From: Gammaproteobacteria bacterium
GTDB lineage: Bacteria; Pseudomonadota; Gammaproteobacteria; Tenderiales; Tenderiaceae
DNA: 64,000 nt
Assembly: GCA_016200485.1 (NCBI GenBank)
Contig: JACQEP010000007.1
Coordinates: forward strand, 48,653 to 112,652
Direction of reading: 5' to 3'
Shown here: positions 2 to 12,974 of the stretch, piece by piece
Layout: each line of letters opens with the position of its first letter
Numbering within the stretch: position 1 is the stretch's first letter
Program-made: the position numbers and the translations under genes
The notes under the pieces: model-generated
The model's database searches: none
What the model was told of the DNA's origin: nothing
What the model saw: the letters and a program-made list of their open reading frames with translations, nothing else

Positions 2-1402
2 GAAAATCATCGCATCGAATACAAGCGCGAACTGACGGACGACCTGGAAAAACAAGTCGTCGCTTTTCTCAATGCACGTGACGGTGGCGTCATTTACCTT
101 GGCATTGACGATGAAGGCAACGCGACGGGGGTAGACGAGTGCGATCAGCTCCAATTGGTAATCAAAGACCGGCTCAAAAACAACATCCAGCCCTCCATCA
201 TGGGGTTGTTTGAAATCATCCACGAACAAATGCAGGGTAAGGATGTCATTCGCCTCACCCTGGCAGGCGGATTGGAAAAGCCCTACTACCTGAAAAAATA
301 CGGCATGACCGAAAAAGGGTGCTATCTGCGCGTCGGCAGTGCCGCAGAACCCATGCCTCAGGCGATGATTGAAACACTTTTCAGCAAGCGGGTGCGTAAC
401 ACCATTGGCCGCATGGAATCACCACGTCGCGATCTTAGCTTTGAACAGCTCAACATTTACTATCAGGCCCGCGGCCTCCACCTCAATGACGCATTCATGA
501 AAAGCCTGGAGCTGCTCACGCCCGATGAAAAGCCCAACTATGCTGCCTATTTGCTGGCCGATGAAAACGGCGTCTCTTTACAGATAGCCAAATACGCAGG
601 CACTGACCGGGTCGATCTGATCGAAAACCGCGACTATGGCCGCTGCTCACTGGTCAAGGCGCTCAAAGCGGTGCTGGAACGTATCGAAGTGGAGAACACT
701 GTCTACACCAAAATCGGCTACCCCTTACGGCAGGAGCGGGCGATGATCGACGCCATCGCCATGCGCGAGGCCGTGATCAATGCCGTGGTCCACAACGATT
801 ACTCCTATGGCGCCAGCCCCAAAGTGGAGTTTTTCTCCGACCGGGTCGAGATCACCTCCATGGGCGGTCTGCCTTATGGTGTGACCGAAGAGGACTTTTT
901 CAGCGGTTGCTCCATTCCCCGCAACAAAGAGATCATGCGCGTGTTTCGTGACCTGGAGATTGTCGAGCACCTCGGCTCCGGCATACCGCGCATTCTGGAA
1001 AAATACGCACGCAACGCCTTTGAGATCCGCAGCAGCTTTGTGCGGGTGATATTCCCCTACAACAAACCCTTTGAAGAAACCGCCCCCGGAACCGAGGCCC
1101 AGGCAGGGGTAGAGTCAGGGGTAGAGTCAGGGGTAGAGTCAGGGGTAGAGTCAGGGGTAGAGTCAGAAATGGCTTTGCAGATCATGACATTGCTTATGTC
1201 TGCCGCGCTATCCAAAACCGAAATAGCCAACGCCCTTGGTAAACAAAAACCAACCCGCTATCTCAATGATTTGATGAAAAAACTACTGGAAGCGGGCCAA
1301 GTGGCCTACACCCTGCCCGGCAAACCCAACAGCCGCCTGCAAAAATACCGGCTGACCGATGCAGGCCATGCCCTGCTGAAAACATTAAAAGACGAGAAAT
1401 AA
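2..1402 (+). CDS. AlbA_2 ('divergent AAA'/Schlafen-like) + HATPase_c_4 domain DNA-binding ATPase-like protein with C-terminal winged-helix; 5' end lies outside the window (frame open from position 2).
   Basis: ORF 155..1402 has no stop upstream in the same frame back to position 2. The upstream residues (ENHRIEYKRELTDDLEKQVVAFLNARDGGVIYLGIDDEGNATG) match the AlbA_2 N-terminal domain. The HLGSGIPRI motif is typical of HATPase_c_4. The C-terminal MTLLMS..KTEIANALG segment reads as a winged HTH. The stop lies 2 nt before the hsdM ATG. Confidence 0.75.
   Translation, partial: ENHRIEYKRELTDDLEKQVVAFLNARDGGVIYLGIDDEGNATGVDECDQLQLVIKDRLKNNIQPSIMGLFEIIHEQMQGKDVIRLTLAGGLEKPYYLKKYGMTEKGCYLRVGSAAEPMPQAMIETLFSKRVRNTIGRMESPRRDLSFEQLNIYYQARGLHLNDAFMKSLELLTPDEKPNYAAYLLADENGVSLQIAKYAGTDRVDLIENRDYGRCSLVKALKAVLERIEVENTVYTKIGYPLRQERAMIDAIAMREAVINAVVHNDYSYGASPKVEFFSDRVEITSMGGLPYGVTEEDFFSGCSIPRNKEIMRVFRDLEIVEHLGSGIPRILEKYARNAFEIRSSFVRVIFPYNKPFEETAPGTEAQAGVESGVESGVESGVESGVESEMALQIMTLLMSAALSKTEIANALGKQKPTRYLNDLMKKLLEAGQVAYTLPGKPNSRLQKYRLTDAGHALLKTLKDEK
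1104..1163 (+). repeat. Perfect 12-bp tandem repeat (caggggtagagt) x5, in frame, encoding (GVES)5 in the linker of the AlbA_2/HATPase_c_4 protein.
   Basis: Direct reading of the sequence gives five identical contiguous 12-mers followed by a partial 'cag'. Confidence 0.95.
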
Positions 1403-1404
1403 CC

Positions 1405-3066
1405 ATGCTGCAAAATAACCCCGAACTAAAAGCAAAAATCGACCAGCTCTGGAATAAATTCTGGAGCGGCGGTATCTCCAATCCACTCACCGCCATCGAG
1501 CAGATTACCTACCTATTGTTCATGAAGCGGCTCGATGAAATCGACCAAAAAAAACAGGCCGATGCCGAATGGACAGGTGAGTTATATCTTTCCAAATTCG
1601 AAGGAACCTGGATGCCGCCGCAATATCGCGGGCAAAAGGATGAGAAAAAATACGCCATTGAAAAATACAAACTTCGCTGGGGTGAATTCAAAAACTATCA
1701 TGCCGAAGAGATGCTGGCTCATGTACAAACCAATGTCTTTCCTTTCCTGAAAGACCTTAACGGTGGCGAGTCAAAATTCACGCACCACATGAAAAATGCC
1801 GTCTTCATCATCCCCAAACCAGCGCTACTGGTAGAGGCAGTGAAGACCATCGACGAAATCTTCGGCATCATGGAGAAAGACTCCCAGGAAACCGGCTGCG
1901 CCTTTCAGGATATCCAGGGGGACGTCTATGAATTCCTGCTCTCTGAGATCGCCAGTGCCGGAAAAAATGGCCAATTCCGCACCCCGCGCCATATCATCAA
2001 GATGATGACTGAACTGGTGCAACCGCAACTGGGCCAGAACATCATCGACCCAGCCTGTGGTTCCGGCGGATTTTTATTGGGGGCCTATCAATACATCATC
2101 ACCCAATTAGCCATTAACGCCGGAGCTACCATCAAAATAACGCCCGACGAAGATGGCTTTAGGCGTACCTCCATCGCCGCAGGGAACACTGAAAATGCCC
2201 AAAGCATCCTGCAACGCACACTGCATGGCTATGACATCGACAGTACCATGGTACGCCTTGGTCTCATGAACCTGATGATGCACGGCATCAACGATCCGCA
2301 GATCGACTACAAAGACACCCTCAGCAAGAGCTTTAACGCCGAAGGCGAATATAACATTGTCATGGCCAACCCGCCCTTCACCGGCAGCATCGACAAGGGC
2401 GATATCAACGAACACTTGCAACTGGCCACCACCAAAACCGAACTGCTGTTTGTCGAGAACATCTACCGCCTGCTGAAAAAAGGCGGCACCGGCTGTGTCA
2501 TCGTGCTGCAAGGCGTGTTGTTCGGTTCCGGCAAGGCCTTCAAGGATCTACGCGAAACCCTGGTGACGCGCTGCGACCTCAAGGCCGTTATCACCATGCC
2601 CAGCGGCGTCTTCAAACCCTATGCCGGGGTCAGTACCGCGATTCTCCTCTTCACCAAGGTGTGGGGACCAAAAGAGAATGTCATCAAACCAGCCACCGAA
2701 CACGTCTGGTTCTACGAAATGGCCGCCGATGGTTATTCGCTGGACGACAAACGCACGAAGCTCGAAGGCCATGGCGACTTGCAGGACATCATCGCCAAAT
2801 ATCACGCACGTAATGCAGAGACAGACACCGACCGTACCCAGAAATATTTCATGGTGCCGCGCACTGACATCGAGGCCGAAGGTTATGACCTGAGCTTAAG
2901 TCGTTACAAGGAAGATGTATTTGAAGAGGTGGAGTACGAAGCCCCGGCGGTAATACTGGATAAGTTGCTCAAGGCGGAAGTGGGTAATGCCAGTGACAAG
3001 GAGCTGACCAAGGTACAGAGTGGCATTGTGCGCGAGTTGTTGGAGTTACGGGAGATGATTGGATGA
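1405..3066 (+). CDS. hsdM: Type I restriction-modification system, DNA methyltransferase subunit M (N6-adenine).
   Basis: HsdM N-terminal signature (LWNKFWSGGISNPLTAIEQITYLLFMKRLD), GQFRTPRHII, AdoMet motif I (DPACGSGGFL) and catalytic motif IV (NPPF). Stop overlaps the hsdS start (ATGA). Confidence 0.93.
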   Translation: MLQNNPELKAKIDQLWNKFWSGGISNPLTAIEQITYLLFMKRLDEIDQKKQADAEWTGELYLSKFEGTWMPPQYRGQKDEKKYAIEKYKLRWGEFKNYHAEEMLAHVQTNVFPFLKDLNGGESKFTHHMKNAVFIIPKPALLVEAVKTIDEIFGIMEKDSQETGCAFQDIQGDVYEFLLSEIASAGKNGQFRTPRHIIKMMTELVQPQLGQNIIDPACGSGGFLLGAYQYIITQLAINAGATIKITPDEDGFRRTSIAAGNTENAQSILQRTLHGYDIDSTMVRLGLMNLMMHGINDPQIDYKDTLSKSFNAEGEYNIVMANPPFTGSIDKGDINEHLQLATTKTELLFVENIYRLLKKGGTGCVIVLQGVLFGSGKAFKDLRETLVTRCDLKAVITMPSGVFKPYAGVSTAILLFTKVWGPKENVIKPATEHVWFYEMAADGYSLDDKRTKLEGHGDLQDIIAKYHARNAETDTDRTQKYFMVPRTDIEAEGYDLSLSRYKEDVFEEVEYEAPAVILDKLLKAEVGNASDKELTKVQSGIVRELLELREMIG

Positions 3067-4643
3067 GAACCGTTGCTCTCGGTGAAATTTGCAAAATTGT
3101 ATCGGGCTCAACCCCTAAAAGGAATAAACCAGAATATTGGGGAGGAGAAATCCCATGGGTTACGCCTAAAGAACTTAGCAAGATGGGATCTCCATATTTG
3201 GAAGATTCCATGGAAAAAATTACTGAACTTGGCTTCAAGTCATGTTCAACAACAATGTTGCCACCTAGGTCATTGCTGCTTAGCTCTAGAGCTCCTATTG
3301 GTTTACTGGCTATAAACAAAAAGAGTGTTTGCACGAATCAAGGTTTCAAAAGCTTGGTGCCATCAGAAGAGGCTCATGTTGAATATCTCTACTACTTCTT
3401 GAAAAACAATATTGGGGCATTACAAGCAAAGGGTAACGGCGCAACTTTTAAAGAATTATCAAGGTCTTCTGTAGAAGAGTTCAAAATCCGCCTCCCACCA
3501 CTTGACGACCAAATCCGCATTGCCCATCTGCTCGGCAAAGTGGAAGGGCTGATCGCCCAGCGCAAACAACACCTGCAACAACTCGACGACCTGCTCAAAA
3601 GCGTCTTTCTGGAGATGTTTGGCGATCCGGTGCGGAATGAGAAGGGGTGGGACATTCAACCTTGCCAAAAAGCCGTATTGGATATTTCTTCAGGCACAAG
3701 TTACGGCGGTGAAGACAGGGCGTTTGTAGGTTCTGACGAAGTTGGAGTGCTGAAGATAAGTGCAGTAACAAAAGGCACATTTGATCCAGCAGAGTTTAAG
3801 GTTGTTAATCCAGCGCAGATAACGAAGACACTTCGCTTTGTTAAGCGTGGCGATTTTCTGTTTAGTCGTGCAAATACGGTCGAGCTTGTTGCTGCATGCT
3901 GCGTTGTTCCACAGGACTACGCACGGTTATTTCTGCCCGATAAGTTATGGGTTTTGACTCTCAATGCTGAGTTAGTAAATTCGCAATTCTTCAATCGCTT
4001 GCTGAAGAATGAACGCTTTCGAGATGTCGTAAGAAGCCTGGCGAGCGGCGGCCACGATTCGATGCTGAATATTTCGATGAAGAAATTTATGACTCTCGAT
4101 ATTCCATGCCCGCCGATCAATCTCCAAAATCAATTCGCCGCAATCGTTGAAAAGATCGAAGGTATCAAATCCCACTACCAACAAAGCCTCACAGAACTAG
4201 AAAACCTCTATGGTGCATTAAGCCAAAAGGCCTTCAAAGGGGAGCTAGATTTGTCGCGTGCCCCTCTGTTAGTGAAGCTGGATGTCGCCGACAACCTAAC
4301 AATGCAACTGGAAGAGAAGGCGGGCCAGAGACATGTAACTACATCCATTGATGTGGTTGATGAGTACCCCATGTCAAACCCGGCTGCCCGCGAGAGGCTG
4401 CTTCGTAGGCTGTTTGATGAGTTTATACAAGACCTGAAAAAAGGTGCCGTCTTGTCGTTAGATTACTTCTGGCAATCAGTGCACTGGAAAGCCGTGGATT
4501 TTACGCACGAAGGGGAGCAGCCCTTTGGCTCGGCGGAGTATGAGCTGGTAAAACGCTGGTTGTTTGAATCTATTAAGTCGGGGCAGTTGGAACAGGCTTT
4601 TGATGAGGATAACAACAAAATTGCGCTGAAGTTGACAGGCTGA
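3063..4643 (+). CDS. hsdS: Type I RM specificity subunit S with two target-recognition domains plus an unusual ~128-aa C-terminal extension.
   Basis: TRD1 start (GEICKIVSGSTPKRNKPEYWGGEIPWVTPKEL). Central conserved region (LPPLDDQIRIAHLLGKVEGLIAQRKQHLQQLDDLLKSVFLEMFGDP). Second conserved region (NLQNQFAAIVEKIEGIKSHYQQSLTELENLYGALSQKAFKGEL). Coding continues ~128 aa past the usual HsdS end. TRD1 (3063-3480) is visibly AT-rich relative to the conserved spacers. Confidence 0.9.
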   Translation: MRTVALGEICKIVSGSTPKRNKPEYWGGEIPWVTPKELSKMGSPYLEDSMEKITELGFKSCSTTMLPPRSLLLSSRAPIGLLAINKKSVCTNQGFKSLVPSEEAHVEYLYYFLKNNIGALQAKGNGATFKELSRSSVEEFKIRLPPLDDQIRIAHLLGKVEGLIAQRKQHLQQLDDLLKSVFLEMFGDPVRNEKGWDIQPCQKAVLDISSGTSYGGEDRAFVGSDEVGVLKISAVTKGTFDPAEFKVVNPAQITKTLRFVKRGDFLFSRANTVELVAACCVVPQDYARLFLPDKLWVLTLNAELVNSQFFNRLLKNERFRDVVRSLASGGHDSMLNISMKKFMTLDIPCPPINLQNQFAAIVEKIEGIKSHYQQSLTELENLYGALSQKAFKGELDLSRAPLLVKLDVADNLTMQLEEKAGQRHVTTSIDVVDEYPMSNPAARERLLRRLFDEFIQDLKKGAVLSLDYFWQSVHWKAVDFTHEGEQPFGSAEYELVKRWLFESIKSGQLEQAFDEDNNKIALKLTG

Positions 4644-4648
4644 TCCTG

Positions 4649-6454
4649 GTGAAACTGTTGCGGCTAAAGATCACCGATCCTGCTGGTTTCCGCAGCCTGC
4701 AGCCGGGTTTCGAGTATCTCTTCCGTACGCCCTGGGAAATCGAAAGCGAGTTGCAGGAGGGGCAGGGCTTTGCGCCTTTTGTTTGTGCTGGACCAAATGG
4801 CAGCGGTAAGTCCAATCTGCTCGAAGTTCTGGCGGCAATATTTTTTAGCATTGAAAGCCGTTATTTGGATTTTTTACCAGATCAATTTGCCGAAAACGGT
4901 GAGGAAGTCGATGTATTTACATCGACAAATACCAAGCCCGACAGCTTCGAGCTGGAATACTTGATACCTCATGAGACTAATACCAGTCCCGTCGAATTTA
5001 AGGACGCTCATGTTGTCATATCAAAAACAGCGGGAAATAGTCCAGAATTGAATTGTTTAAATAAAAGCGAGTTCGGCATTGATGAAAAGGACTCTATTTC
5101 TCGACAACAAGCCAAAAAACTATTACCGCAGTATGTTCTTGGTTGCTCTTCGGGGGAAAACGAGATATTGAGCCTGCCTTTTTTCAAGCTGCGTTTTGTC
5201 CAGTTCGATGAATATTGGAATGCGCTAAGCAACCAATTGCCTTATCCAGGTAGACCAGAAACTAGGCTTGCCTATCTCGATAGTTCCTTTAGTCAGGCGA
5301 TTTTGCTCTGCAATCTGCTCTTTCAGGATGCAGAAACGCTAATGCCATTTCGCGAAGACGTTGGCGTGGAGGAACTGAGAGAGTTTCGTATTATTATCAA
5401 GCGCAGCATCGATGTTTCCGCTGAGATTGCTGCGAAATTTGAAAGAGGAGGTTTTGCTGAAGAGGGTTATGCGCAGGGTGGATATTATGCCAGTAATCCA
5501 GCGCTTACCTTGGACGGCGAGACCGGTCGTCACACCATTAATCTCATGCGCCTGCTTGAGGCCGGTAAAGATTCCGCAGAGAATTTTGATCCAATCGTTA
5601 CACGTCTAAAACGATGTGCGACTTGCTCCTTCGTGGATGAAACAACCGATACGCTTTATCTCGATTATTACGTCAATGAAGCAACTAAAGAGGCGTTCAA
5701 AGAAAATTTCGATTATTCGCCAATAGCATTGTTTCAGGCGTTTCAGGTCTTGCTCTCACTTAATCTCTATTCCGTTAGCGATACATTGAAAAGTAACCTG
5801 TACAAATCCGATAGCCTTTATGTTGGGGAAACCGTGCCAATCTTAGCCTCTGATGAGCGCATTATGAGATTTAAGCATTTTCTGTTAAAGAAAAGGGGCG
5901 CTGAAGAATCTGTGCTTCTTAAAAGCCTATCTGATGGCGAGCATCAGCTTTTGCACATCCTTGGCCTATGTTTGTTGTTCAGAAATACCAACAGTCTATT
6001 TCTGCTCGATGAGCCGGAAACCCACTTCAACCCGGACTGGCGTTCGAACTTTATCACGCGCCTGCGCCAGTGTTTTCGCGAGTCCACAGATACCCATGAA
6101 ATGCTTGTTACGACCCATGCCCCCTTCTTAATCTCCGACAGTAAACCAGAAAAGGTACTGGTCTTTAAGAAAGACGAGGGGCTCGGAACGGTCAACATCA
6201 GCAAACCGGATTACAACACCCTGGGCGCATCGATTAACAAGATCACTATGAATACCTTCGGCAAACGGGAAACTATTGGCGGCTATGCACAGTCGATTCT
6301 TGAGGGTCTGCGTAACCGGTTTGAAGGTGGCGAGGACAAGGATCAGCTCATTAATGAGATTAATCAGCAACTGGGCGACTCGGTTGAAAAGGTACTGCTG
6401 ATCAAGACTATCCTTGATGGCATGGAGGGTGAGGGTAATGCTGTTCCCGTATAA
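4649..6454 (+). CDS. ABC/SMC-type (AAA_21/AAA_15-like) ATPase, GTG start; candidate PtuA-like defence ATPase.
   Basis: Walker A (GPNGSGKSN), ABC signature-like (LSDGEHQLLHILG), Walker B/D-loop (LFLLDEPETHFNP) and H-loop (TTHAPF). GTG at 4649 lies 5 nt after the hsdS stop. An insertion between Walker A and the signature is typical of SMC/OLD/PtuA-like ATPases. Confidence 0.85.
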   Translation: MKLLRLKITDPAGFRSLQPGFEYLFRTPWEIESELQEGQGFAPFVCAGPNGSGKSNLLEVLAAIFFSIESRYLDFLPDQFAENGEEVDVFTSTNTKPDSFELEYLIPHETNTSPVEFKDAHVVISKTAGNSPELNCLNKSEFGIDEKDSISRQQAKKLLPQYVLGCSSGENEILSLPFFKLRFVQFDEYWNALSNQLPYPGRPETRLAYLDSSFSQAILLCNLLFQDAETLMPFREDVGVEELREFRIIIKRSIDVSAEIAAKFERGGFAEEGYAQGGYYASNPALTLDGETGRHTINLMRLLEAGKDSAENFDPIVTRLKRCATCSFVDETTDTLYLDYYVNEATKEAFKENFDYSPIALFQAFQVLLSLNLYSVSDTLKSNLYKSDSLYVGETVPILASDERIMRFKHFLLKKRGAEESVLLKSLSDGEHQLLHILGLCLLFRNTNSLFLLDEPETHFNPDWRSNFITRLRQCFRESTDTHEMLVTTHAPFLISDSKPEKVLVFKKDEGLGTVNISKPDYNTLGASINKITMNTFGKRETIGGYAQSILEGLRNRFEGGEDKDQLINEINQQLGDSVEKVLLIKTILDGMEGEGNAVPV

Positions 6455-7526
6455 ATACGTTCCGCACCAGATGGAGAAGATGCAAGAGTTTATCGACTTT
6501 ATCTTTTTTGAGGTGTGGTGCAAGGCTCTTTGGGAAGAGTACGATATTTCCCTCTTCAACAGTTGCCCAGAGCTGAAAACCATGATCGAAGGTCTGTACC
6601 ACACGGAGCCCAAGGGGGCAGATTTTTTCATAAAAGGCATTCAACAGATTTTCGATCAATTCAAAGTTCTGAATTATTTTGACTTGATGCGAATGCAAAG
6701 GTGGTACGAGGCAAATAACAATATAGAAGCAGCTTGTAGTCGAAAAGGAAAGGTTAATCCTGTTAGGTATGGCTCTTTAGGAAAAAGCTTCAATGAGCGG
6801 TACCAAGGGCTGAGTAAATCGCTTCACGCGTTCTTCAAGGACCTCTATTCACCAAACTTCTTAACGCTGAAAATTATTGAAAATGCGATTGGTAATATCG
6901 ACGACCATTATCAGCACTTCGTGCAGGTAAACACTGCGGGAAAATGCCCGTTTTGCGGAATCGGTGACGTGAAGGGCGTGCATCACACCAAGCGCGAAGC
7001 CTACGACCACTATCTCCCCAAGGCGCTCTACCCGTTTAGCTCAATCAATTTCCGCAACCTTGCTCCGGCCTGCCACGAGTGCAACAGCACCTATAAGCTC
7101 AGCAAGGACCCGGTGAATACTGCCGCAGGTCGTCGCAAGGCCTTTTACCCCTACGCTGATCCTGGTTCCAATATCGAAGTGACGATTGAACTCAGCAAGC
7201 CGGATGTTGATGATCTCACTCCTGCTGATATTCAGCTTGCCTTCGGTCCGTCGGAGTTAAATGAAGAAATTGAAACATGGAAAGATGTATACGGTATCGA
7301 GGAGCGGTATCGAGGAAAGTTGTTGGAAGGAGATGGAAAAGCGTGGCTCACAGAAATTTTGGACGAATGGAAATGGAAGGAAGTGAGCAATGGCAACGAA
7401 GGGCGCTCTCCCGCTGAATACCTTCGGGCCCTAAACCGTCACGTAACAAATTCACCATTTACAGGGGCTAATTTTCTCAAAAAGGCATTTCTTGAAGCAT
7501 GTGAAAGACAAAAATTGTTTGGCTAA
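6438..7526 (+). CDS. HNH-family endonuclease with an N-terminal ~170-aa domain of unknown function; candidate PtuB-like nuclease partner of the upstream ATPase (alternative start at 6414).
   Basis: HNH zinc/catalytic motif (CPFCG...HHTKREAYDHYLPK...FRNLAPACHECN). ATG at 6438 is preceded by GGAGGGTGAGGG and overlaps the ATPase stop at 6454. The N-terminal half is AT-rich. Confidence 0.8.
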   Translation: MLFPYKYVPHQMEKMQEFIDFIFFEVWCKALWEEYDISLFNSCPELKTMIEGLYHTEPKGADFFIKGIQQIFDQFKVLNYFDLMRMQRWYEANNNIEAACSRKGKVNPVRYGSLGKSFNERYQGLSKSLHAFFKDLYSPNFLTLKIIENAIGNIDDHYQHFVQVNTAGKCPFCGIGDVKGVHHTKREAYDHYLPKALYPFSSINFRNLAPACHECNSTYKLSKDPVNTAAGRRKAFYPYADPGSNIEVTIELSKPDVDDLTPADIQLAFGPSELNEEIETWKDVYGIEERYRGKLLEGDGKAWLTEILDEWKWKEVSNGNEGRSPAEYLRALNRHVTNSPFTGANFLKKAFLEACERQKLFG

Positions 7527-7842
7527 GAAATGATTAAATGAGCCGGGCTCGATTTGGTCATTTGCCCATTATGCAAAATCAAAGATCATTGGTGAAGAAT
7601 GGCGCTCAGACAATCAATTTTTGAGGTGATCAATTAGCCTGCTTAAGAGGCGCGTTGTGGGTAAGCGCCGTTATGAATTAGACTAAGCAAAGATTCAGAG
7701 ATTTTTCAGGGGTGGGATCAGGAAGACCCGTGCTACAAACCCTGACTCAGGTTTCGCGACCTATCGTCTCAAGGTCTATCCCATTAGGCTGGGGTCCACC
7801 CTTTTCAACTTTATAATTGTACAGCTGATGGGGGTGGGTCAG

Positions 7843-8115
7843 ATGAGCAGAGAAAATAGAATCCGTTGCAACAACATTGACTACCGGAAAGGCTTTGTCG
7901 AAGTTGAGTCTGGTGTCCACGTGGGTTGCATAACCTTAGAAACATGGAATGTTAAAATGGACCTGGATATTTCGAATCTAGACCTTTCGGATGAAGCCAT
8001 ACCAGAAGATAGCGTTACAGGAAACACAGAAATAGAAATGAGTGTTACTGAAGCCGAACAGCTAATTCAATTACTACAAAACGCAATTGATCTGGTCAGA
8101 AAAGGAAACGTATAG
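7843..8115 (+). CDS. Hypothetical small acidic protein (90 aa) in an AT-rich spacer.
   Basis: Open frame with a purine-rich stretch before the ATG. No recognisable motif. Confidence 0.25.
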   Translation: MSRENRIRCNNIDYRKGFVEVESGVHVGCITLETWNVKMDLDISNLDLSDEAIPEDSVTGNTEIEMSVTEAEQLIQLLQNAIDLVRKGNV

Positions 8116-8266
8116 CCACGTCCAGTGGATTGCTCTACGAAGTGGGTGCTTCAAATCCAGTGGTTCGGGCTTGATCTGATTGGCTCATATCATTTTATCG
8201 AATGGCCGGGTTCGGCCTAGAGCTGTAGTTCATAGTTTGTTAGCTGAACGTCTGCTTTAATGGTAA

Positions 8267-8928
8267 GTGCTTGTTATAGCATGCTTTGGATTTCCTTTGA
8301 TTGAATGGAGGATTCGGTGCGCAAACTTCATGCCTTCACTACATAGTGCCTGGAATAAAGGAAGACTAGTTGGGCAAAAGCTACCGCTGATGCAGCTATC
8401 TGAGAATATCAGGGATCTAGCGCTCTTCAATCTAGCCATCGATAGCACAAGCTTAGAGGTTGTGACTTAGTGAGGCTAATAGTCAGTGACCTCACACATG
8501 GCTCATCAATACTTAAGTGCGCAATGATCATGCAACAGAAAACCAAGCAACCTGTTCAGTTCGAGATTACAGATCAAATCAGGAAGGCCGTATTAGGCTT
8601 GATAGCCCTTCAGTATCTGAAATACAATGACACTCTCTTCCAAAGTCGTTTTCATCAATCACCTCATATCTATACCCGACAATCCGCCAGGATGGTCGGG
8701 TAATGGGTAAATGATATCGGACTAGACCCTGCGGATTACGGCGCTCACTCTATAAGAAGAACCAAGGTCTCGTTGATCTATCGGCAAACCCACAACTTGA
8801 GAGCATCCAGCTACTCCTCGGTCACACCAGATTGGAAAGTACTGTTAGGTATCTTTAGATATCTTGGTATAGAGGTAGATGATACCCTGGAAATATCAGA
8901 ACGGATGGAAATATAGCCATCCATCCCC
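8267..8928 (+). pseudogene. Tyrosine recombinase/phage-type integrase remnant (catalytic domain only), disrupted by frameshifts, an in-frame stop and a ~10-bp duplication.
   Basis: Integrase-like peptides in three frames: AWNKGRLVGQKLPLMQLSENIRDLALFNLAIDSTSLEVV | LIVSDLTHG...QPVQFEITDQIRKAVLGLIAL..FQSRFHQSPHIYTRQSARMVG stop(TAA 8701) | DIGLDPADYGAHSIRRTKVSLIYRQTHNLRA | IQLLLGHTRLESTVRYL stop | GIEVDDTLEISERMEI. The N-terminal arm/core-binding domains are absent. Confidence 0.8.
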
Positions 8929-8960
8929 CACACCTAGAAGCATTTTACACTTAAAAGTAA

Positions 8961-8988
8961 GGGAGCAGGACAGCCTGCTCCCTTTTAT
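8961..8988. terminator. Bidirectional rho-independent terminator (GGGAGCAGG-acagc-CTGCTCCC flanked by A-run/T-run).
   Basis: Perfect 9-bp stem with AAAAG upstream and TTTTAT downstream. Lies between the integrase remnant (+) and the 3' end of the minus-strand gene 8990..9334. Confidence 0.7.
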
Positions 8989-8989
8989 A

Positions 8990-9334
8990 CTATTCGCCAG
9001 TGTAATTGGCAGCGATGTAGTTGCCATCCGGAGTATAGAATAGATATAAAGTTTGCTTGGAGGCGTCACTCACTTTCTCATTCTTGAATATCACCACCCA
9101 TTCAGGGCCGTCTGCAAAGGTCTTTTGTTCTACCGAAGCGGGTTGAATTCCAGACCAGGACGCATCAATTTTTCCGGCCGTTGCCAGTTGTTCAACTTTT
9201 TGCATTGCCTTGCCAGAGGTCACATCCGCAGAAACGGGCCCATGAGAATGGCCGTGATCGTGCCCTGATCCTGCATATATTGGGTTTGCAAAAAACAAGA
9301 ACAGTGAAACTAGTGTAGAAATTAGATAACGCAT
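8990..9334 (-). CDS. Secreted His-rich putative metal-binding periplasmic protein (114 aa).
   Basis: Start MRYLISTLVSLFLFFANPIYA (signal peptide) preceded by GGAGGA. GSGHDHGHSHGP His-rich motif. The longer ORF-track start (9409) is upstream of the RBS and is rejected. Confidence 0.6.
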   Translation of the reverse strand: MRYLISTLVSLFLFFANPIYAGSGHDHGHSHGPVSADVTSGKAMQKVEQLATAGKIDASWSGIQPASVEQKTFADGPEWVVIFKNEKVSDASKQTLYLFYTPDGNYIAANYTGE

Positions 9335-9350
9335 AAATCCTCCAGGTCTA

Positions 9351-9485
9351 TTAATTGATGGTGTCATGTTGATTTGTTTGATCATGTGAGTGCCCATTAC
9401 CATGGGCATGGCCGTCTTCTGATGAGCATGCAGAAAATAGCGTTAAACTTGAACAGGTGAATATTATCAAAACTAACTTGTGCAT
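9351..9485 (-). CDS. 44-aa His-rich lipoprotein-like peptide (MHKLVLIIFTCSSLTLFSACSSEDGHAHGNGHSHDQTNQHDTIN), absent from the ORF track.
   Basis: GGAGGT RBS 6 nt upstream of the ATG. Lipobox-like LFSAC. Same GHxHGxGHSH motif as the downstream gene, and tandem with it. Confidence 0.45.
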   Translation of the reverse strand: MHKLVLIIFTCSSLTLFSACSSEDGHAHGNGHSHDQTNQHDTIN

Positions 9486-9501
9486 TATTTACCTCCTATC
9501 G

Positions 9502-10692
9502 TTAATCAATGCTTTCATGTCTTGCCTGGAGTTTTGGAGCTGGTTCGTTAATTACCTTATTTTTATCCACTAGCTGATATTCGCCATTTACTTTTAGCGA
9601 AATGGTGATAGGTGTGTGGGTGTTGTTTTTCCAATACCAACCATGTGTACCTGCAAATGTAGAGGTTAAAGAGCCGCTTGACTGGCTTTCCGTACTCTTG
9701 TGGAAGCTTTTGAAATAGCCGGTGGTATCGCCTGCGGGTTCACCATGAAAATCATAAAACAGTGGCTCGCCATCTGTTCGCCATGAATAGTTAAACGTCG
9801 CACCTTTGGCTAGAAAGAGTTTGTACTCCTTATCACCTCTGGCAGGTATCGTGACAGCGATGGAATCTTTCCACTCTGTAGACTCCATGCTTGCAAGGCC
9901 TCCTTGCACGGCAGTAGATTGCGCGGAGGCTTCTTTACTTGCGCCTAGCTCTTTATTGATGGTGTGCTCATAACCATGCATTTGCATGAAAAATAGGTAA
10001 ATTCCCATGGCTATCAAGGCATAGTTTGCAATCAGGCTGAACGCTTTGAAACCATGGGTTTTACGCCATGCCGCAATCAGCAATAACATCAGGAACAGCG
10101 CGCTGATTTGTCCCAGTTCGATGCCTATGTTGAACGAAATAATATTCAGTAACAGTCCGTCTTCGCTTAGCGGCAGTTCCTGCAAACGCGTGGATAAGCC
10201 AAAACCATGGATCAGCCCAAGCCCAATGATCATCAGCATCATGTTAGGTGGGTTAATACCAAGATATTTACGAAAGCCGTCAATGTTAGCGAAAGCGATA
10301 TAACACACACTGAGCGCAATCACTGCATCAATGAGGAAGTAGTTAAGCTGAATCGCGTTAAATGTGGCGAAAATCAGCGTGACACTGTGCCCCAGTGTAA
10401 ACGCGGTCACGTATTTGGCAATATCCCGAAAGGTGGTTAGGAAGAAGATGATCCCGAAGACAAACGCAAGATGGTCGTAGCCGGAAAGCATGTGTGTAGC
10501 GCCTAGCCACAAATACTGCACGTTACCACCGTCGATGATTGCCTGTTTTTCCGCTCCAGACATACCATGAGCAAAGGCAAGATTGGAAAACAATGCAAAC
10601 AGCACGAGCCCGGTGATTAGAATAAACAGATTTCGTTTGACTAACATGGCTTGATTATTCTGGGGTAATGAGATTGCTTTGCTGCTAATCAC
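9502..10692 (-). CDS. HupE/UreJ-family (Ni/Co) membrane transporter fused to a ~140-aa C-terminal soluble domain.
   Basis: HupE/UreJ signature HMLSGYDHLAFVFGIIFF. Multiple TM segments over ~250 aa, followed by a hydrophilic tail (KELGASKEASAQ...WKNNTHTPITISLKVNGEYQLV). Confidence 0.7.
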   Translation of the reverse strand: MISSKAISLPQNNQAMLVKRNLFILITGLVLFALFSNLAFAHGMSGAEKQAIIDGGNVQYLWLGATHMLSGYDHLAFVFGIIFFLTTFRDIAKYVTAFTLGHSVTLIFATFNAIQLNYFLIDAVIALSVCYIAFANIDGFRKYLGINPPNMMLMIIGLGLIHGFGLSTRLQELPLSEDGLLLNIISFNIGIELGQISALFLMLLLIAAWRKTHGFKAFSLIANYALIAMGIYLFFMQMHGYEHTINKELGASKEASAQSTAVQGGLASMESTEWKDSIAVTIPARGDKEYKLFLAKGATFNYSWRTDGEPLFYDFHGEPAGDTTGYFKSFHKSTESQSSGSLTSTFAGTHGWYWKNNTHTPITISLKVNGEYQLVDKNKVINEPAPKLQARHESID

Positions 10693-10997
10693 AGGCGACC
10701 TCCTTTTTCGGCAGCTGTTACCCAGTAAACGCCATGTCCCGTGAGATTGGCTTGCGCCTCACTAAGCTTTGCCAATACAGCATTTACATCAGTATCCTCA
10801 AGTAAAATATCTGTCCGTATACGTGGGGCATAGCCAACCACGTTATCGTGTGCAGTTATAAAAGGGTCGCTTTCCACTTCTACACCATGACCTTCGACGT
10901 GGCTAAAGGTAAAGCCTGAGACCTGATCAATAGTGCGTAATAAATCAGCCAGTTGTTGCTGAACGTTCGTATGAACAATAAGCGTTAATACTTTCAT
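10689..10997 (-). CDS. Small P-II-fold/DUF3240-like protein of the kind found beside cation-efflux genes.
   Basis: 102 aa. MKVLTLIVHTNVQQQLADLL...GHGV pattern. 4-nt overlap with the HupE/UreJ gene. The family assignment is from memory. Confidence 0.5.
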   Translation of the reverse strand: MKVLTLIVHTNVQQQLADLLRTIDQVSGFTFSHVEGHGVEVESDPFITAHDNVVGYAPRIRTDILLEDTDVNAVLAKLSEAQANLTGHGVYWVTAAEKGGRL

Positions 10998-11141
10998 GCG
11001 TATTCCTCTGCAATGAATCGAATCTTTAGGGTTGCCAGTGCACCAGAAATCGGCTGCATTACTGGCTTAAATTTATGTCGCATGGATACGGTCGGCTCGA
11101 GTCTAAGTCGAGCGAGCATCAATACATTGATAGAGAAACGC

Positions 11142-11558
11142 TTAAAGTGGTGGTGCGCGAAGCGGTGGGATTAGATGAAATCGACGGGGAAGGCTAACGT
11201 TGCCACGATTTATAGGAAATTTATTTCGATATAGCCCAGGTACGGGCAGGAACAGCACGATGCCTATTAAGGCTGCCATCAGTAGATTGCTAGCTACCTG
11301 TTTTAAGCAGTCCGGGCATGCATCAATCACTGTTGTTGTTTCATCATGGTGATCCTGATGGGAGCTGTCTAAAGAAAGGTGAGCCCCACCAATGTGAGAG
11401 TGTCCATTGATATTGTCGATTGAGTGATGACCTTGATGCGAGTCATGATCAAAGCTGTGGACATGTAGAGTTACGCCTTGAGCTGACAGCATTAGCAATG
11501 AAAGCAATACTGTCCACGCAATCAATATTCTCTTATCTATTTTACGAAAAAAATCCAT
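11142..11558 (-). CDS. His-rich secreted/membrane-anchored putative metal-binding protein (DUF2946-like?).
   Basis: N-terminal signal/TM. HVHSFDHDSHQGHHSIDNINGHSHIGGAH...HQDHHDE. CPDC motif. C-terminal hydrophobic segment. Confidence 0.5.
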   Translation of the reverse strand: MDFFRKIDKRILIAWTVLLSLLMLSAQGVTLHVHSFDHDSHQGHHSIDNINGHSHIGGAHLSLDSSHQDHHDETTTVIDACPDCLKQVASNLLMAALIGIVLFLPVPGLYRNKFPINRGNVSLPRRFHLIPPLRAPPL

Positions 11559-11665
11559 CGTGGCAGTCTAGCAACTTAAGTGTCCAAGTGTAAATCGGAT
11601 ATTATTTGATCCAATTCGACAATAAGGAAAAATTCTTTATTTTGACAAGCCTTATTCATGTGTAC

Positions 11666-11941
11666 TTATTTGAGATAGGAGCGTAACACTGCCACAACCT
11701 GCTCCAGATCCTCATTGCGCTGCTGAGGCGTCACACCCTCAGCGCCTAGATGCTCCCTGAGATGCCCCTCCAGCACTTCAGTCATGAGGCCATTTACCGC
11801 ACCACGAATCGCCGCAATCTGCTGAAGAATCGCCACACATTCTTTATCTTGTTCCAGGGCCTTTTCTAAGGCCTCTGTCTGCCCTTTGATGCGGCGTAAT
11901 CGGGTCAGCAGTTGTTTCTTACCTTCAATCGTATGCGACAT
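11666..11941 (-). CDS. RcnR/FrmR/CsoR-family metal-sensing transcriptional repressor (DmeR-like), 91 aa.
   Basis: N-terminus MSHTIEGKKQLLTRLRRIKGQTEALEKAL matches the RcnR/FrmR family. Divergent to a CDF transporter. The longer ORF-track start is rejected. Confidence 0.8.
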   Translation of the reverse strand: MSHTIEGKKQLLTRLRRIKGQTEALEKALEQDKECVAILQQIAAIRGAVNGLMTEVLEGHLREHLGAEGVTPQQRNEDLEQVVAVLRSYLK

Positions 11942-11962
11942 GGTTTCTCTTTCTAAGAGAGG

Positions 11963-11981
11963 TATACTGAGGTATAGTATA
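11963..11981. promoter_or_regulatory. Candidate RcnR/DmeR operator: inverted repeat TATACT-N7-AGTATA in the divergent intergenic region.
   Basis: tatactgaggtatagtata contains TACT-N7-AGTA, resembling the E. coli RcnR site consensus TACT-G6-N-AGTA. An adjacent direct repeat GAGGTATA x2 is present. Confidence 0.5.
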
Positions 11982-12011
11982 TGCCAATATGAATCAAGTA
12001 GACAAATTTCG

Positions 12012-12974
12012 ATGATCCCCCCCAAAACAGACAACGACTGGAATCACTCTCACGTATTTGATGAGGGCAATCCACTGGCGGAAAGAAATACCCGCTGGGC
12101 GGTGATTCTGACGGCAATCATGATGGTGGTCGAAATCGCTGGCGGCTGGGTATTTAACTCAATGGCATTATTGGCCGACGGTTGGCACATGAGTTCACAC
12201 GCTCTGGCACTGGGTCTCTCTGTGGCAGCCTATGTCGCCGCCCGGCGCTTTGCCCATGATGGCCGATTTGCGTTTGGCACCTGGAAAATTGAGGTTCTGG
12301 GCAGCTATACCAGCGCAATCCTGCTCATTGGTGTTGCCGGACTGATGCTTTACCAGTCGGTAGAACGACTCATGGCGCCGTCCCCTATCCACTACGATCA
12401 AGCGATTTTCGTTGCCATCCTAGGCTTATTGGTCAATCTCGCCTGTGCTTGGCTACTCAATGACGGACATGCGCATCATGATCATGACCTTGATCACGGA
12501 CACCATCATGACCTGAACCTGCGCGCTGCCTATCTCCACGTACTTGCCGATGCAGCAACCTCCGTCCTGGCTATTTTGGCGTTGATCGGTGGTAAATTAT
12601 GGGGAGCTAGCTGGCTTGATCCCGCAATGGGCATCGTTGGTGCGGTGTTGGTTACGGTATGGGCTTATGGGCTGTTACACGACGCAGGGCGAGTGCTGCT
12701 CGATGCAGAAATGAATGCCCCCGTGGTCAATGAAATTCGTGACGTGATCGACGCCTGCCCCTCCGATGCACATATCTGCGACCTTCATGTGTGGCGTGTC
12801 GGCAAGGGTAAATACGCCTGCATCCTATCGCTTATCGTTAATGCCGATTCTAACGATGATGCGGAATATTACCAAAAGCAGTTGGGCATTCACGAGGAGC
12901 TTGTTCATATCACTGTGGAAATAAAGAACCAACAAAAACCTGTTGATCTTGAAGCTGAAATTGCACCAGCTTAA
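12012..12974 (+). CDS. Cation diffusion facilitator (CDF) family Co/Ni/Zn efflux transporter (DmeF/CzcD-like).
   Basis: MIPPKTDNDWNHSHVF...WAVILTAIMMVVEIAGG. His-rich cytoplasmic loop (HAHHDHDLDHGHHHDLN) followed by LRAAYLHVLADAATSV. Start chosen at 12012 rather than the ORF-track 11886. Confidence 0.85.
   Translation: MIPPKTDNDWNHSHVFDEGNPLAERNTRWAVILTAIMMVVEIAGGWVFNSMALLADGWHMSSHALALGLSVAAYVAARRFAHDGRFAFGTWKIEVLGSYTSAILLIGVAGLMLYQSVERLMAPSPIHYDQAIFVAILGLLVNLACAWLLNDGHAHHDHDLDHGHHHDLNLRAAYLHVLADAATSVLAILALIGGKLWGASWLDPAMGIVGAVLVTVWAYGLLHDAGRVLLDAEMNAPVVNEIRDVIDACPSDAHICDLHVWRVGKGKYACILSLIVNADSNDDAEYYQKQLGIHEELVHITVEIKNQQKPVDLEAEIAPA

Follow-up and report, generated by a model that had tools for sequence, protein, structure and literature searches.

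An ABC ATPase–HNH nuclease gene pair at the 3′ end of a type I restriction-modification operon, with a probable role as a Septu-like second line of defence

Does a gene for an ATP-binding cassette (ABC)-type ATPase that runs into a gene for a large HNH nuclease constitute a defence system of its own, or does the pair belong to something larger? The locus that raises this question lies in the genome of a Gammaproteobacteria bacterium (Tenderiaceae; assembly GCA_016200485.1), within a stretch of 64,000 nt (contig JACQEP010000007.1, 48,653–112,652, forward strand; hereafter, the window), and an earlier note made from these letters alone had treated the pair as a two-gene system of its own that could be a new Septu subtype or a distinct defence family. 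Neither idea held up. The pair sits at the 3′ end of a type I restriction-modification (R-M) operon, and we lean towards the view that, as the last two cistrons of this operon, it provides a PtuAB-like, ATPase-gated nuclease that is coupled to the restriction enzyme and serves as its back-up. The features of both genes were as follows, with the ATPase motifs read in the translation:

4649–6454, forward strand: ABC-type ATPase of family TIGR04435, GTG start, 601 aa
4790–4816, forward strand: Walker A/P-loop, GPNGSGKSN, at aa 48
5927–5953, forward strand: ABC signature, LSDGEHQLL, at aa 427
6002–6034, forward strand: Walker B and D-loop, LLDEPETHFNP, at aa 452
6113–6127, forward strand: H-loop, THAPF, at aa 489
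6438–7526, forward strand: HNH nuclease partner, 362 aa, ATG start (conserved start, ribosome-binding site, identical NCBI protein)
6438–6932, forward strand: family-specific N-terminal helical domain, aa 1–165 (AlphaFold2 (AF2) model, conservation)
6945–7085, forward strand: HNH catalytic core, CxxC...DH...N...CxxCN zinc finger (invariant residues, PADLOC and PHROG matches)
7158–7526, forward strand: C-terminal domain, aa 241–362, predicted as a beta-hairpin followed by a helical bundle (AF2, predicted local distance difference test (pLDDT) 70–91)

All motifs that had been quoted in the earlier note, for the ATPase as well as for the HNH nuclease, were found in their places. An alignment of 42 ATPase homologues showed G48 and N50 to N56 (including K54) of Walker A to be invariant, together with S428 to H436 of the ABC signature, L452, D454, E455, P456, T458, H459, N461 and P462 of the Walker B/D-loop region, and T489 and H490 of the H-loop. 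The protein matched the NCBIfam model TIGR04435 (“restriction system-associated AAA family ATPase”) with 806.3 bits (cutoff, 300; E = 1.6e-242), its residues 1–592 aligning with profile positions 1–567 of 568, and its Pfam matches were generic only (i.e., AAA_21, SMC_N, and AAA_15). The GTG start, located 5 nt past the hsdS stop codon, could be confirmed, since the aligned homologues begin at MKLLRLKI and since NCBI holds a 100% identical protein, named as a member of the TIGR04435 family, that is likewise 601 aa long. By its profile match, the ATPase is thus a full member of this curated family, situated within a restriction locus as the family name implies. Judged by the E-values, a chance match is a non-issue for the family assignments of both the ATPase and the HNH protein.

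For the HNH partner, the longest open reading frame (ORF) starts at a TTG codon (6414–7526, 370 aa). The true start is the ATG at 6438, because M1 and L2 were invariant among 40 homologues, because GGAGGGTGAGGG (with the ribosome-binding site GGAGGG) lies just 5′ of this codon, and because the identical NCBI protein counts 362 aa. From this corrected start, the gene still overlaps the ATPase stop codon (6452–6454), as the earlier note had observed, the overlap being 17 nt, and both genes are translationally coupled and, with all their catalytic residues kept, intact. Specifically, the HNH motifs CPFCG (aa 170), HHTKREAYDHYLPK (aa 182), and CHECN (aa 212; all in the numbering of the 362-aa protein) were present, and residues C170, C173, D190, H191, N204, N207, C212, C215, and N216 of the core were invariant among the 40 homologues. 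A mis-called start, which had been offered as a possible cause of the large size of this protein, was rejected, as the shift from TTG 6414 to ATG 6438 amounts to only 8 codons and the N-terminal domain is real, being conserved from residue 1 onwards.

More than 1,682 homologues of the HNH protein were present in the database (with listed E-values from 2.4e-254 to 3.6e-124), and the best 120 of these were 341–377 aa long, with 52–67% identity (besides the protein's own identical entry) and a query coverage of 95–98%. The N-terminal 165 residues were among the best-conserved parts of the protein, with a consensus start of MLFPYTYVPHQMEKMQxFIDFIFxEVWCKAP, and were modelled by AF2 as all-helical, with a pLDDT of about 90 over aa 20–90. 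When this region alone was searched against 1.84 billion representative proteins, 139 matches were obtained, all of them to the N-terminal region of proteins of at most 390 aa. Since it matches only within its own HNH family, the domain is family-specific, and neither mobile nor recently added. The earlier note had taken its AT-richness as a sign of recent acquisition. The AT-richness itself was borne out (a GC content of 0.418 vs. 0.460 for the whole gene), but the GC content at third codon positions (GC3) was normal (0.539, vs. 0.526 for the whole gene and 0.398 for the C-terminal part), so that the AT-richness stems from the first two codon positions and hence from the amino-acid composition. 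Recent acquisition was ruled out by this GC3 value, by the conservation of the domain across phyla, and by its exclusivity.

The remark that the N-terminal domain resembles nothing recognisable proved apt, and applies to both flanks of the core, since a structure search returned no fold match in the PDB for either the N- or the C-terminal flanking domain. Conserved residues of the C-terminal domain include E276, T280, W281, Y285, R290, K294, F346, and L347. The HNH protein as a whole is covered neither by a Pfam family nor, above cutoff, by an NCBIfam family; its core was also matched by PHROG families of HNH endonucleases.

To compare the surroundings of the pair, 185,579 species were scanned, each represented by a single genome; this yielded 222 relatives, of which 80 loci were fetched. 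All 57 loci with enough flanking sequence carried the genes in the order hsdR-(insert)-hsdM-hsdS-ATPase-HNH on one strand, and none lacked any of the five genes, so that the claim of a self-contained two-gene system had to be given up. These 57 loci cover Proteobacteria, Desulfobacterota, Chlorobi, Cyanobacteria, Nitrospirae, Lentisphaerae, and Negativicutes, and the phyla of the scanned relatives further include Fibrobacteres and Verrucomicrobia. A gene-sized insert separated hsdR from hsdM in 21 of the 57, as in the window. The annotated loci of Nitrosomonas europaea, Dickeya dianthicola, and Escherichia coli follow the same scheme, with or without the insert, and the slot, which holds a KilA-N gene in Nitrosomonas and a Bro-N gene in Dickeya, looks like a site for variable cargo genes within the operon. 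Junctions between the genes were tight, with a 4-nt overlap of hsdS and the ATPase gene in 43/67 loci and a 1-nt overlap of the ATPase and HNH genes in 72/79. Even plasmid-borne branches with only 28–36% identity (Priestia, Sphingobium, and Hymenobacter) retain hsdM-hsdS-ATPase-HNH. In a few of the relatives (locus L005, at positions 8170–10001, and four of the 80 loci), the ATPase frame was interrupted or truncated while the HNH and R-M genes looked intact, which may reflect either counter-selection of the ATPase or assembly errors.

A phage origin of the pair was considered and dismissed in view of its near-absence from phage and viral sequence sets. No match was found in 50,697 phage records, and a single one was found among 2.9 million viral contigs, on a contig carrying the complete five-gene operon.

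Within the window itself, the genes upstream of the pair were identified by their Pfam matches:

2–1402, forward strand: cargo gene between hsdR and hsdM, with SLFN AlbA_2 (2.5e-18), HATPase_c_4 (4e-18), and Fic-like_C (1.7e-9) domains
1405–3066, forward strand: hsdM (N6_Mtase, 1.3e-55; HsdM_N, 8.6e-19)
3063–4643, forward strand: hsdS (Methylase_S, 1.4e-32)

The 5′ end of the cargo gene runs off the window, frame 2 being open from base 2, and hsdR, if present, is expected just upstream. The HsdM of the window is 65–85% identical to that of related loci. The hsdM and hsdS genes overlap by 4 nt (ATGA), and the 5-nt gap between hsdS and the ATPase gene and the 17-nt overlap of the ATPase and HNH genes complete the compact spacing. 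Promoter-like and terminator-like sites were no commoner in the window than expected by chance.

The divergence of the ATPase among relatives closely followed that of the restriction subunits (Mantel r of 0.87 with HsdR and 0.81 with HsdM, vs. 0.90 between HsdR and HsdM), and its correlation with the HNH protein was 0.68. Mean pairwise identity was higher for HsdR (0.82) and HsdM (0.81) than for the ATPase (0.64), the HNH protein (0.59), and HsdS (0.37), meaning that the ATPase and HNH protein have diverged at roughly double the pace of HsdR and HsdM; this fits, albeit weakly, with parts that face phage factors. The HsdR proteins of this clade contain HSDR_N, ResIII/DEAD, Helicase_C, and EcoEI_R_C domains, and their PD-(D/E)xK nuclease motif (SDYVL...VEAKK) was invariant in the relatives. 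The HNH protein is therefore not a substitute for a lost or degenerate HsdR nuclease, a role that had also been considered for it. From these comparisons, the pair is a member of a large family that has spread horizontally and is always attached, in this gene order, to one clade of type I R-M systems (i.e., that with an EcoEI_R_C-containing HsdR), and the ATPase, HNH, and R-M genes are inherited as one unit.

HsdS itself was found to extend about 125 aa past its distal conserved helix (aa 401–526, at about 4263–4643), and a tail of 106–233 aa was present in 48/48 relatives (106–167 aa in 47 of them). In the HsdS profile, the target-recognition domains were variable and the central and distal regions conserved, with only 31% conservation in the tail. 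Divergence of the tail correlated with that of the ATPase (r = 0.68), HsdR (0.57), and HsdM (0.59), whereas the target-recognition domains tracked nothing (about 0.1). The tail could be a docking element for the ATPase–HNH module, or could merely be linked to the neighbouring gene.

How the pair relates to characterised systems was then examined at the level of each protein. The ATPase matched the PADLOC model PtuA1 (PDLC00293) with 164 bits in two stretches, and the other PtuA models, AriA, PDC-M62A, and PDC-M01A with 45–77 bits over part of its length, the other PtuA models covering the C-terminal lobe only. In a profile search of the PDB, the ATPase of a type I-A retron ranked first (9n69, 1.8e-8), followed by retron PtuA, AriA, and Septu PtuA, with the PtuA matches ranging from E = 1e-8 to 6e-4. 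Foldseek likewise placed 9n69, Septu 8eea, and retrons Ec83 and Ec78 ahead of the Rad50/SMC heads and AriA; the ATPase model being poor, it was used solely to rank neighbours. By these searches, the ATPase is a distinct family with PtuA of Septu and of type I-A retrons as its nearest characterised relatives, in line with the comparison to PtuA in the earlier note. For the HNH protein, the PADLOC models PDC-M01B (57 bits), PDC-M62B (52 bits), and PtuB (29–32 bits) matched the catalytic core only (about aa 160–300), the PtuB models being confined to aa 170–236, and the retron-HNH model TIGR02646 reached 16.8 bits against a cutoff of 52.15.

The protein is indeed larger than canonical PtuB (362 aa vs. 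PADLOC models of 216–250 positions), but this is no peculiarity of the locus, as the PDC-M62B models span 328–401 positions and the partner in a stand-alone pair on a Bacillus wiedmannii plasmid counts 378 aa. That plasmid pair (627 aa + 378 aa) matched PDC-M62A and PDC-M62B over their full length (620 and 472 bits, respectively), and its alignment with the window proteins extended over just the core of the HNH protein and the C-terminal lobe of the ATPase. The comparisons with PtuA/PtuB, GajA/GajB, and AriA/AriB that the earlier note had called for gave partial matches to PtuA and AriA, a match to PtuB in the core only, and no GajA among the matches listed.

The pair shares with Septu PtuA/PtuB (PDB 8EEA/8EE4) an ABC/SMC-type ATPase gene followed by an overlapping HNH gene of the CxxC...DH...N...CxxCN type. 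In contrast to Septu, however, it does not stand alone but is fixed behind hsdM-hsdS, it resembles Septu only in the HNH core and in the C-terminal lobe of the ATPase, and its HNH core is flanked on both sides by family-specific domains that PtuB models leave unmatched. Type I-A retrons (Ec78/Eco7 and Ec83; 9N69, 9KJX, 9NNB, and 9E8Z) offer the parallel of a PtuAB-like effector under an upstream sensing module in the same operon, but there the upstream partner is a reverse transcriptase with multicopy single-stranded DNA rather than HsdM/HsdS (and, in the family, HsdR), and the sequence likeness is remote. The unpublished PADLOC candidates PDC-M62 and PDC-M01 have the same gene order and similar sizes (about 600 aa for the ATPase and 280–400 aa for the HNH protein), yet the window proteins align with them in the HNH core and C-terminal ATPase lobe only (49–57 bits, partial); calls of both candidates duplicate Septu calls in Bacillus (PMC11811056).

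PrrC–EcoprrI and PARIS, the subjects of the R-M guardian concept (reviewed in PMC12707154), resemble the pair in that an effector under an ABC-type ATPase is embedded in, or functionally tied to, a type I R-M system. They differ from it in that the effector here is an HNH protein rather than an anticodon nuclease or TOPRIM protein, and in its position after hsdS at the end of the operon. For PARIS, AriA models scored 48–70 bits over part of the ATPase, and the HNH partner had no TOPRIM match, so that the system is not PARIS. PrrC/RloC was found neither among the 25 best PADLOC matches listed nor in the full NCBIfam list for either protein, and differs, despite its analogous locus context, by an anticodon nuclease that is fused rather than a separate HNH protein. 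As for Gabija, no GajA was among the 25 best PADLOC matches of the ATPase listed, and neither protein contained a TOPRIM or helicase domain. Dyads of an OLD-type ABC ATPase and an HNH protein have been proposed as back-up effectors of BREX and R-M-like systems (PMC12839542); these are alike in that an ABC ATPase–nuclease dyad was recruited into a methylation-based defence operon, but the survey covers BREX and BREX-related systems. No experimental study of a TIGR04435 + HNH module was found in the literature searched, outside of which falls the ABC ATPase classification of Krishnan et al. (2020), and literature on Gao_RL/MANTIS and Ambrosia, considered as possible matches, contained nothing describing this system.

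In E. coli, the pair was present in 96 of 5,426 complete genomes (1.8%), always on the chromosome, and annotated by PGAP as “restriction system-associated AAA family ATPase” and “HNH endonuclease”. It occurs there as two alleles. The first was found in 11 genomes (with a pair 90–95% identical to the Citrobacter query), 10 of which had a full-length cognate hsdR; the single locus examined (O111:H11 strain 8D, NZ_CP077469.1, 804485–813387) is a five-gene operon among genes of an integrative and conjugative element (ICE). The second was found in 85 genomes, with hsdM, hsdS, and the ATPase and HNH genes annotated as complete, and without a cognate hsdR at the locus or, at the search sensitivity used, elsewhere in the genome. 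Its examined locus (strain SCU-482, NZ_CP053247.1, 4236744–4242824) lies between ldtA and remnants of conjugation genes, beside the yersiniabactin genes fyuA and ybtE. The retention of an hsdR-less allele in 85 genomes is a weak fit with HsdM/HsdS and the pair acting as a working unit.

What, then, might the pair do at the end of a restriction operon? The mode of action of PtuAB is known from work on Septu and retrons, and it is the basis for the ATPase-gated HNH complex proposed here. By analogy, the ATPase would assemble into an oligomer that serves as a scaffold for the HNH protein, and ATP binding or hydrolysis by the ATPase would gate the HNH nuclease activity; the two helical domains specific to this HNH family, one at each end of the protein, are obvious candidates for contacting the ATPase. 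Less certainly, the module might be released once phage anti-restriction proteins block HsdM/HsdS, or once restriction fails or is overwhelmed, upon which the HNH nuclease might cut nucleic acid and thereby abort the infection. PrrC guarding EcoprrI and PARIS sensing Ocr may serve as precedents for such a back-up role. A more specific and rather tentative version, which we would hold possible but not probable, is that the TIGR04435 ATPase and HNH protein dock physically on HsdM/HsdS, perhaps via the HsdS tail, and fire upon a block by DNA mimics that counter restriction, such as Ocr or ArdA, or upon restriction failure. If true, the module would be a restriction guardian that is widespread, hard-wired, and equipped with a nuclease as its effector, and PtuAB-type effectors would be interchangeable outputs, attached to retrons in one lineage and to restriction enzymes in another.

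Several points weigh against a coupled, PtuAB-like role. Correlated divergence and a fixed gene order would also be expected from physical linkage on a mobile island, and hsdR lies outside the view of this window. The likeness of the ATPase to PtuA is remote and confined to the C-terminal ABC lobe (37 bits for the NCBIfam PtuA model NF041760, with a cutoff of 500), and the Foldseek ranking is indicative only, given the poor ATPase model (pLDDT of 61, and a template-modelling (TM) score of about 0.2 to its matches). Moreover, when the HNH family profile was searched against PDB sequences, no solved PtuB was recovered and only one match, at chance level, was returned. The trigger, the substrate, and the formation of a complex would all be carried over by analogy, and the E. 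coli allele without hsdR may represent just one remnant in decay.

The pair could alternatively be an independent Septu-like two-gene defence that merely co-travels with a type I R-M system in an island, and that senses infection itself (e.g., through ATP depletion or DNA ends). Pairs of an ABC ATPase and a large HNH protein do exist on their own (such as the PDC-M62 pair of the B. wiedmannii plasmid), PDC-M01/PDC-M62 calls coincide with Septu calls in Bacillus, and the window ATPase matches many PtuA models. Nevertheless, no stand-alone copy occurred among the close relatives, the order was fixed in every one of the 57 loci, the 4-nt overlap with hsdS and the tracking of HsdR by the ATPase tie the module to the enzyme, and hsdM-hsdS is kept upstream down to 28% identity, while ordinary island neighbours shuffle far more. 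We therefore regard independence as unlikely, with the strict synteny counting against it. A similarly low likelihood is given to the idea that the ATPase and HNH protein are integral restriction subunits that would add a motor or clamp, and a further activity for cutting unmethylated target DNA, to make up a five-subunit complex. This idea would accommodate the strict operon membership and co-inheritance, the family-wide HsdS tail (which could dock extra subunits, and which tracks the ATPase best), and also the hsdR-less E. coli operon, in which the HNH protein would be left as the sole nuclease. It is at odds, less strongly, with an HsdR that keeps an invariant nuclease motif and full helicase domains, so that no activity is missing, and with the divergence of the pair at about twice the rate of HsdR and HsdM, which would be unusual for the core of one machine; moreover, PtuAB and AriA, the characterised systems nearest to the pair, act as effectors or sensors rather than as restriction subunits.

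By far the least probable, and in our estimate very improbable, is an addiction or stabilisation module in which a toxin-like nuclease is curbed by the ATPase or by methylation and kills cells that lose the R-M island. The operon does reside on mobile islands (cf. the ICE genes in E. coli O111:H11 and the conjugation remnants by the yersiniabactin genes) and on plasmids, and the AAA_21 domain is named after the AbiEii toxin family. However, nothing specific speaks for this role, and no antitoxin-like small gene was conserved at the Nitrosomonas, Dickeya, and E. coli loci. Type I R-M systems are also not known for strong post-segregational killing.

With regard to its novelty, the pair of the window is an ordinary member of a widespread and already catalogued gene pair, both of its proteins being 100% identical to annotated NCBI proteins, and this copy adds nothing beyond family membership. 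The family would, from sequence and gene order, be best called a Septu-like ATPase–HNH effector hard-wired to a type I R-M system and endowed with a distinctive HNH partner; it could be placed in none of Septu, PDC-M62, PDC-M01, PARIS, or Gabija. Should the pair be coupled in function to the restriction enzyme, as we favour, it would represent a common natural form of layered immunity built into one operon, and would extend the guarding idea of PrrC and PARIS to a Septu-like DNA or RNA nuclease. The natural E. coli alleles with and without hsdR make such coupling directly testable. For annotation, “Septu-like” calls beside hsdS should be interpreted as belonging to a five-gene type I system, and the 362-aa HNH partner merits a family model of its own, there being none in Pfam, NCBIfam, or PADLOC.

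Finally, a few observations were made elsewhere in the window. The cargo gene contains, at 1104–1166, 5.2 copies of a perfect 12-nt tandem repeat (CAGGGGTAGAGT); the encoded (GVES)5 separates the HATPase_c_4 domain from the Fic-like_C domain and might act as a variable-length linker. Downstream (3′) of the HNH gene, a 95-aa ORF without significant family match (best PHROG E = 0.077) is located at 7828–8115, followed by two short adjacent ORFs at 8267–8703, the second of which has a faint integrase match (PHROG 216, E = 0.016); these two may be a decayed integrase that marks the edge of an island. Further downstream, at 8990–12974, lies a metal-handling cluster that is unrelated to the ATPase–HNH pair, and that encodes a DUF6488 protein, a HupE/UreJ_2 membrane protein, a DUF3240/P-II-like protein, a histidine-rich small protein, a CsoR-type metal-sensing repressor (Trns_repr_metal), and a cation-efflux (CDF) transporter.

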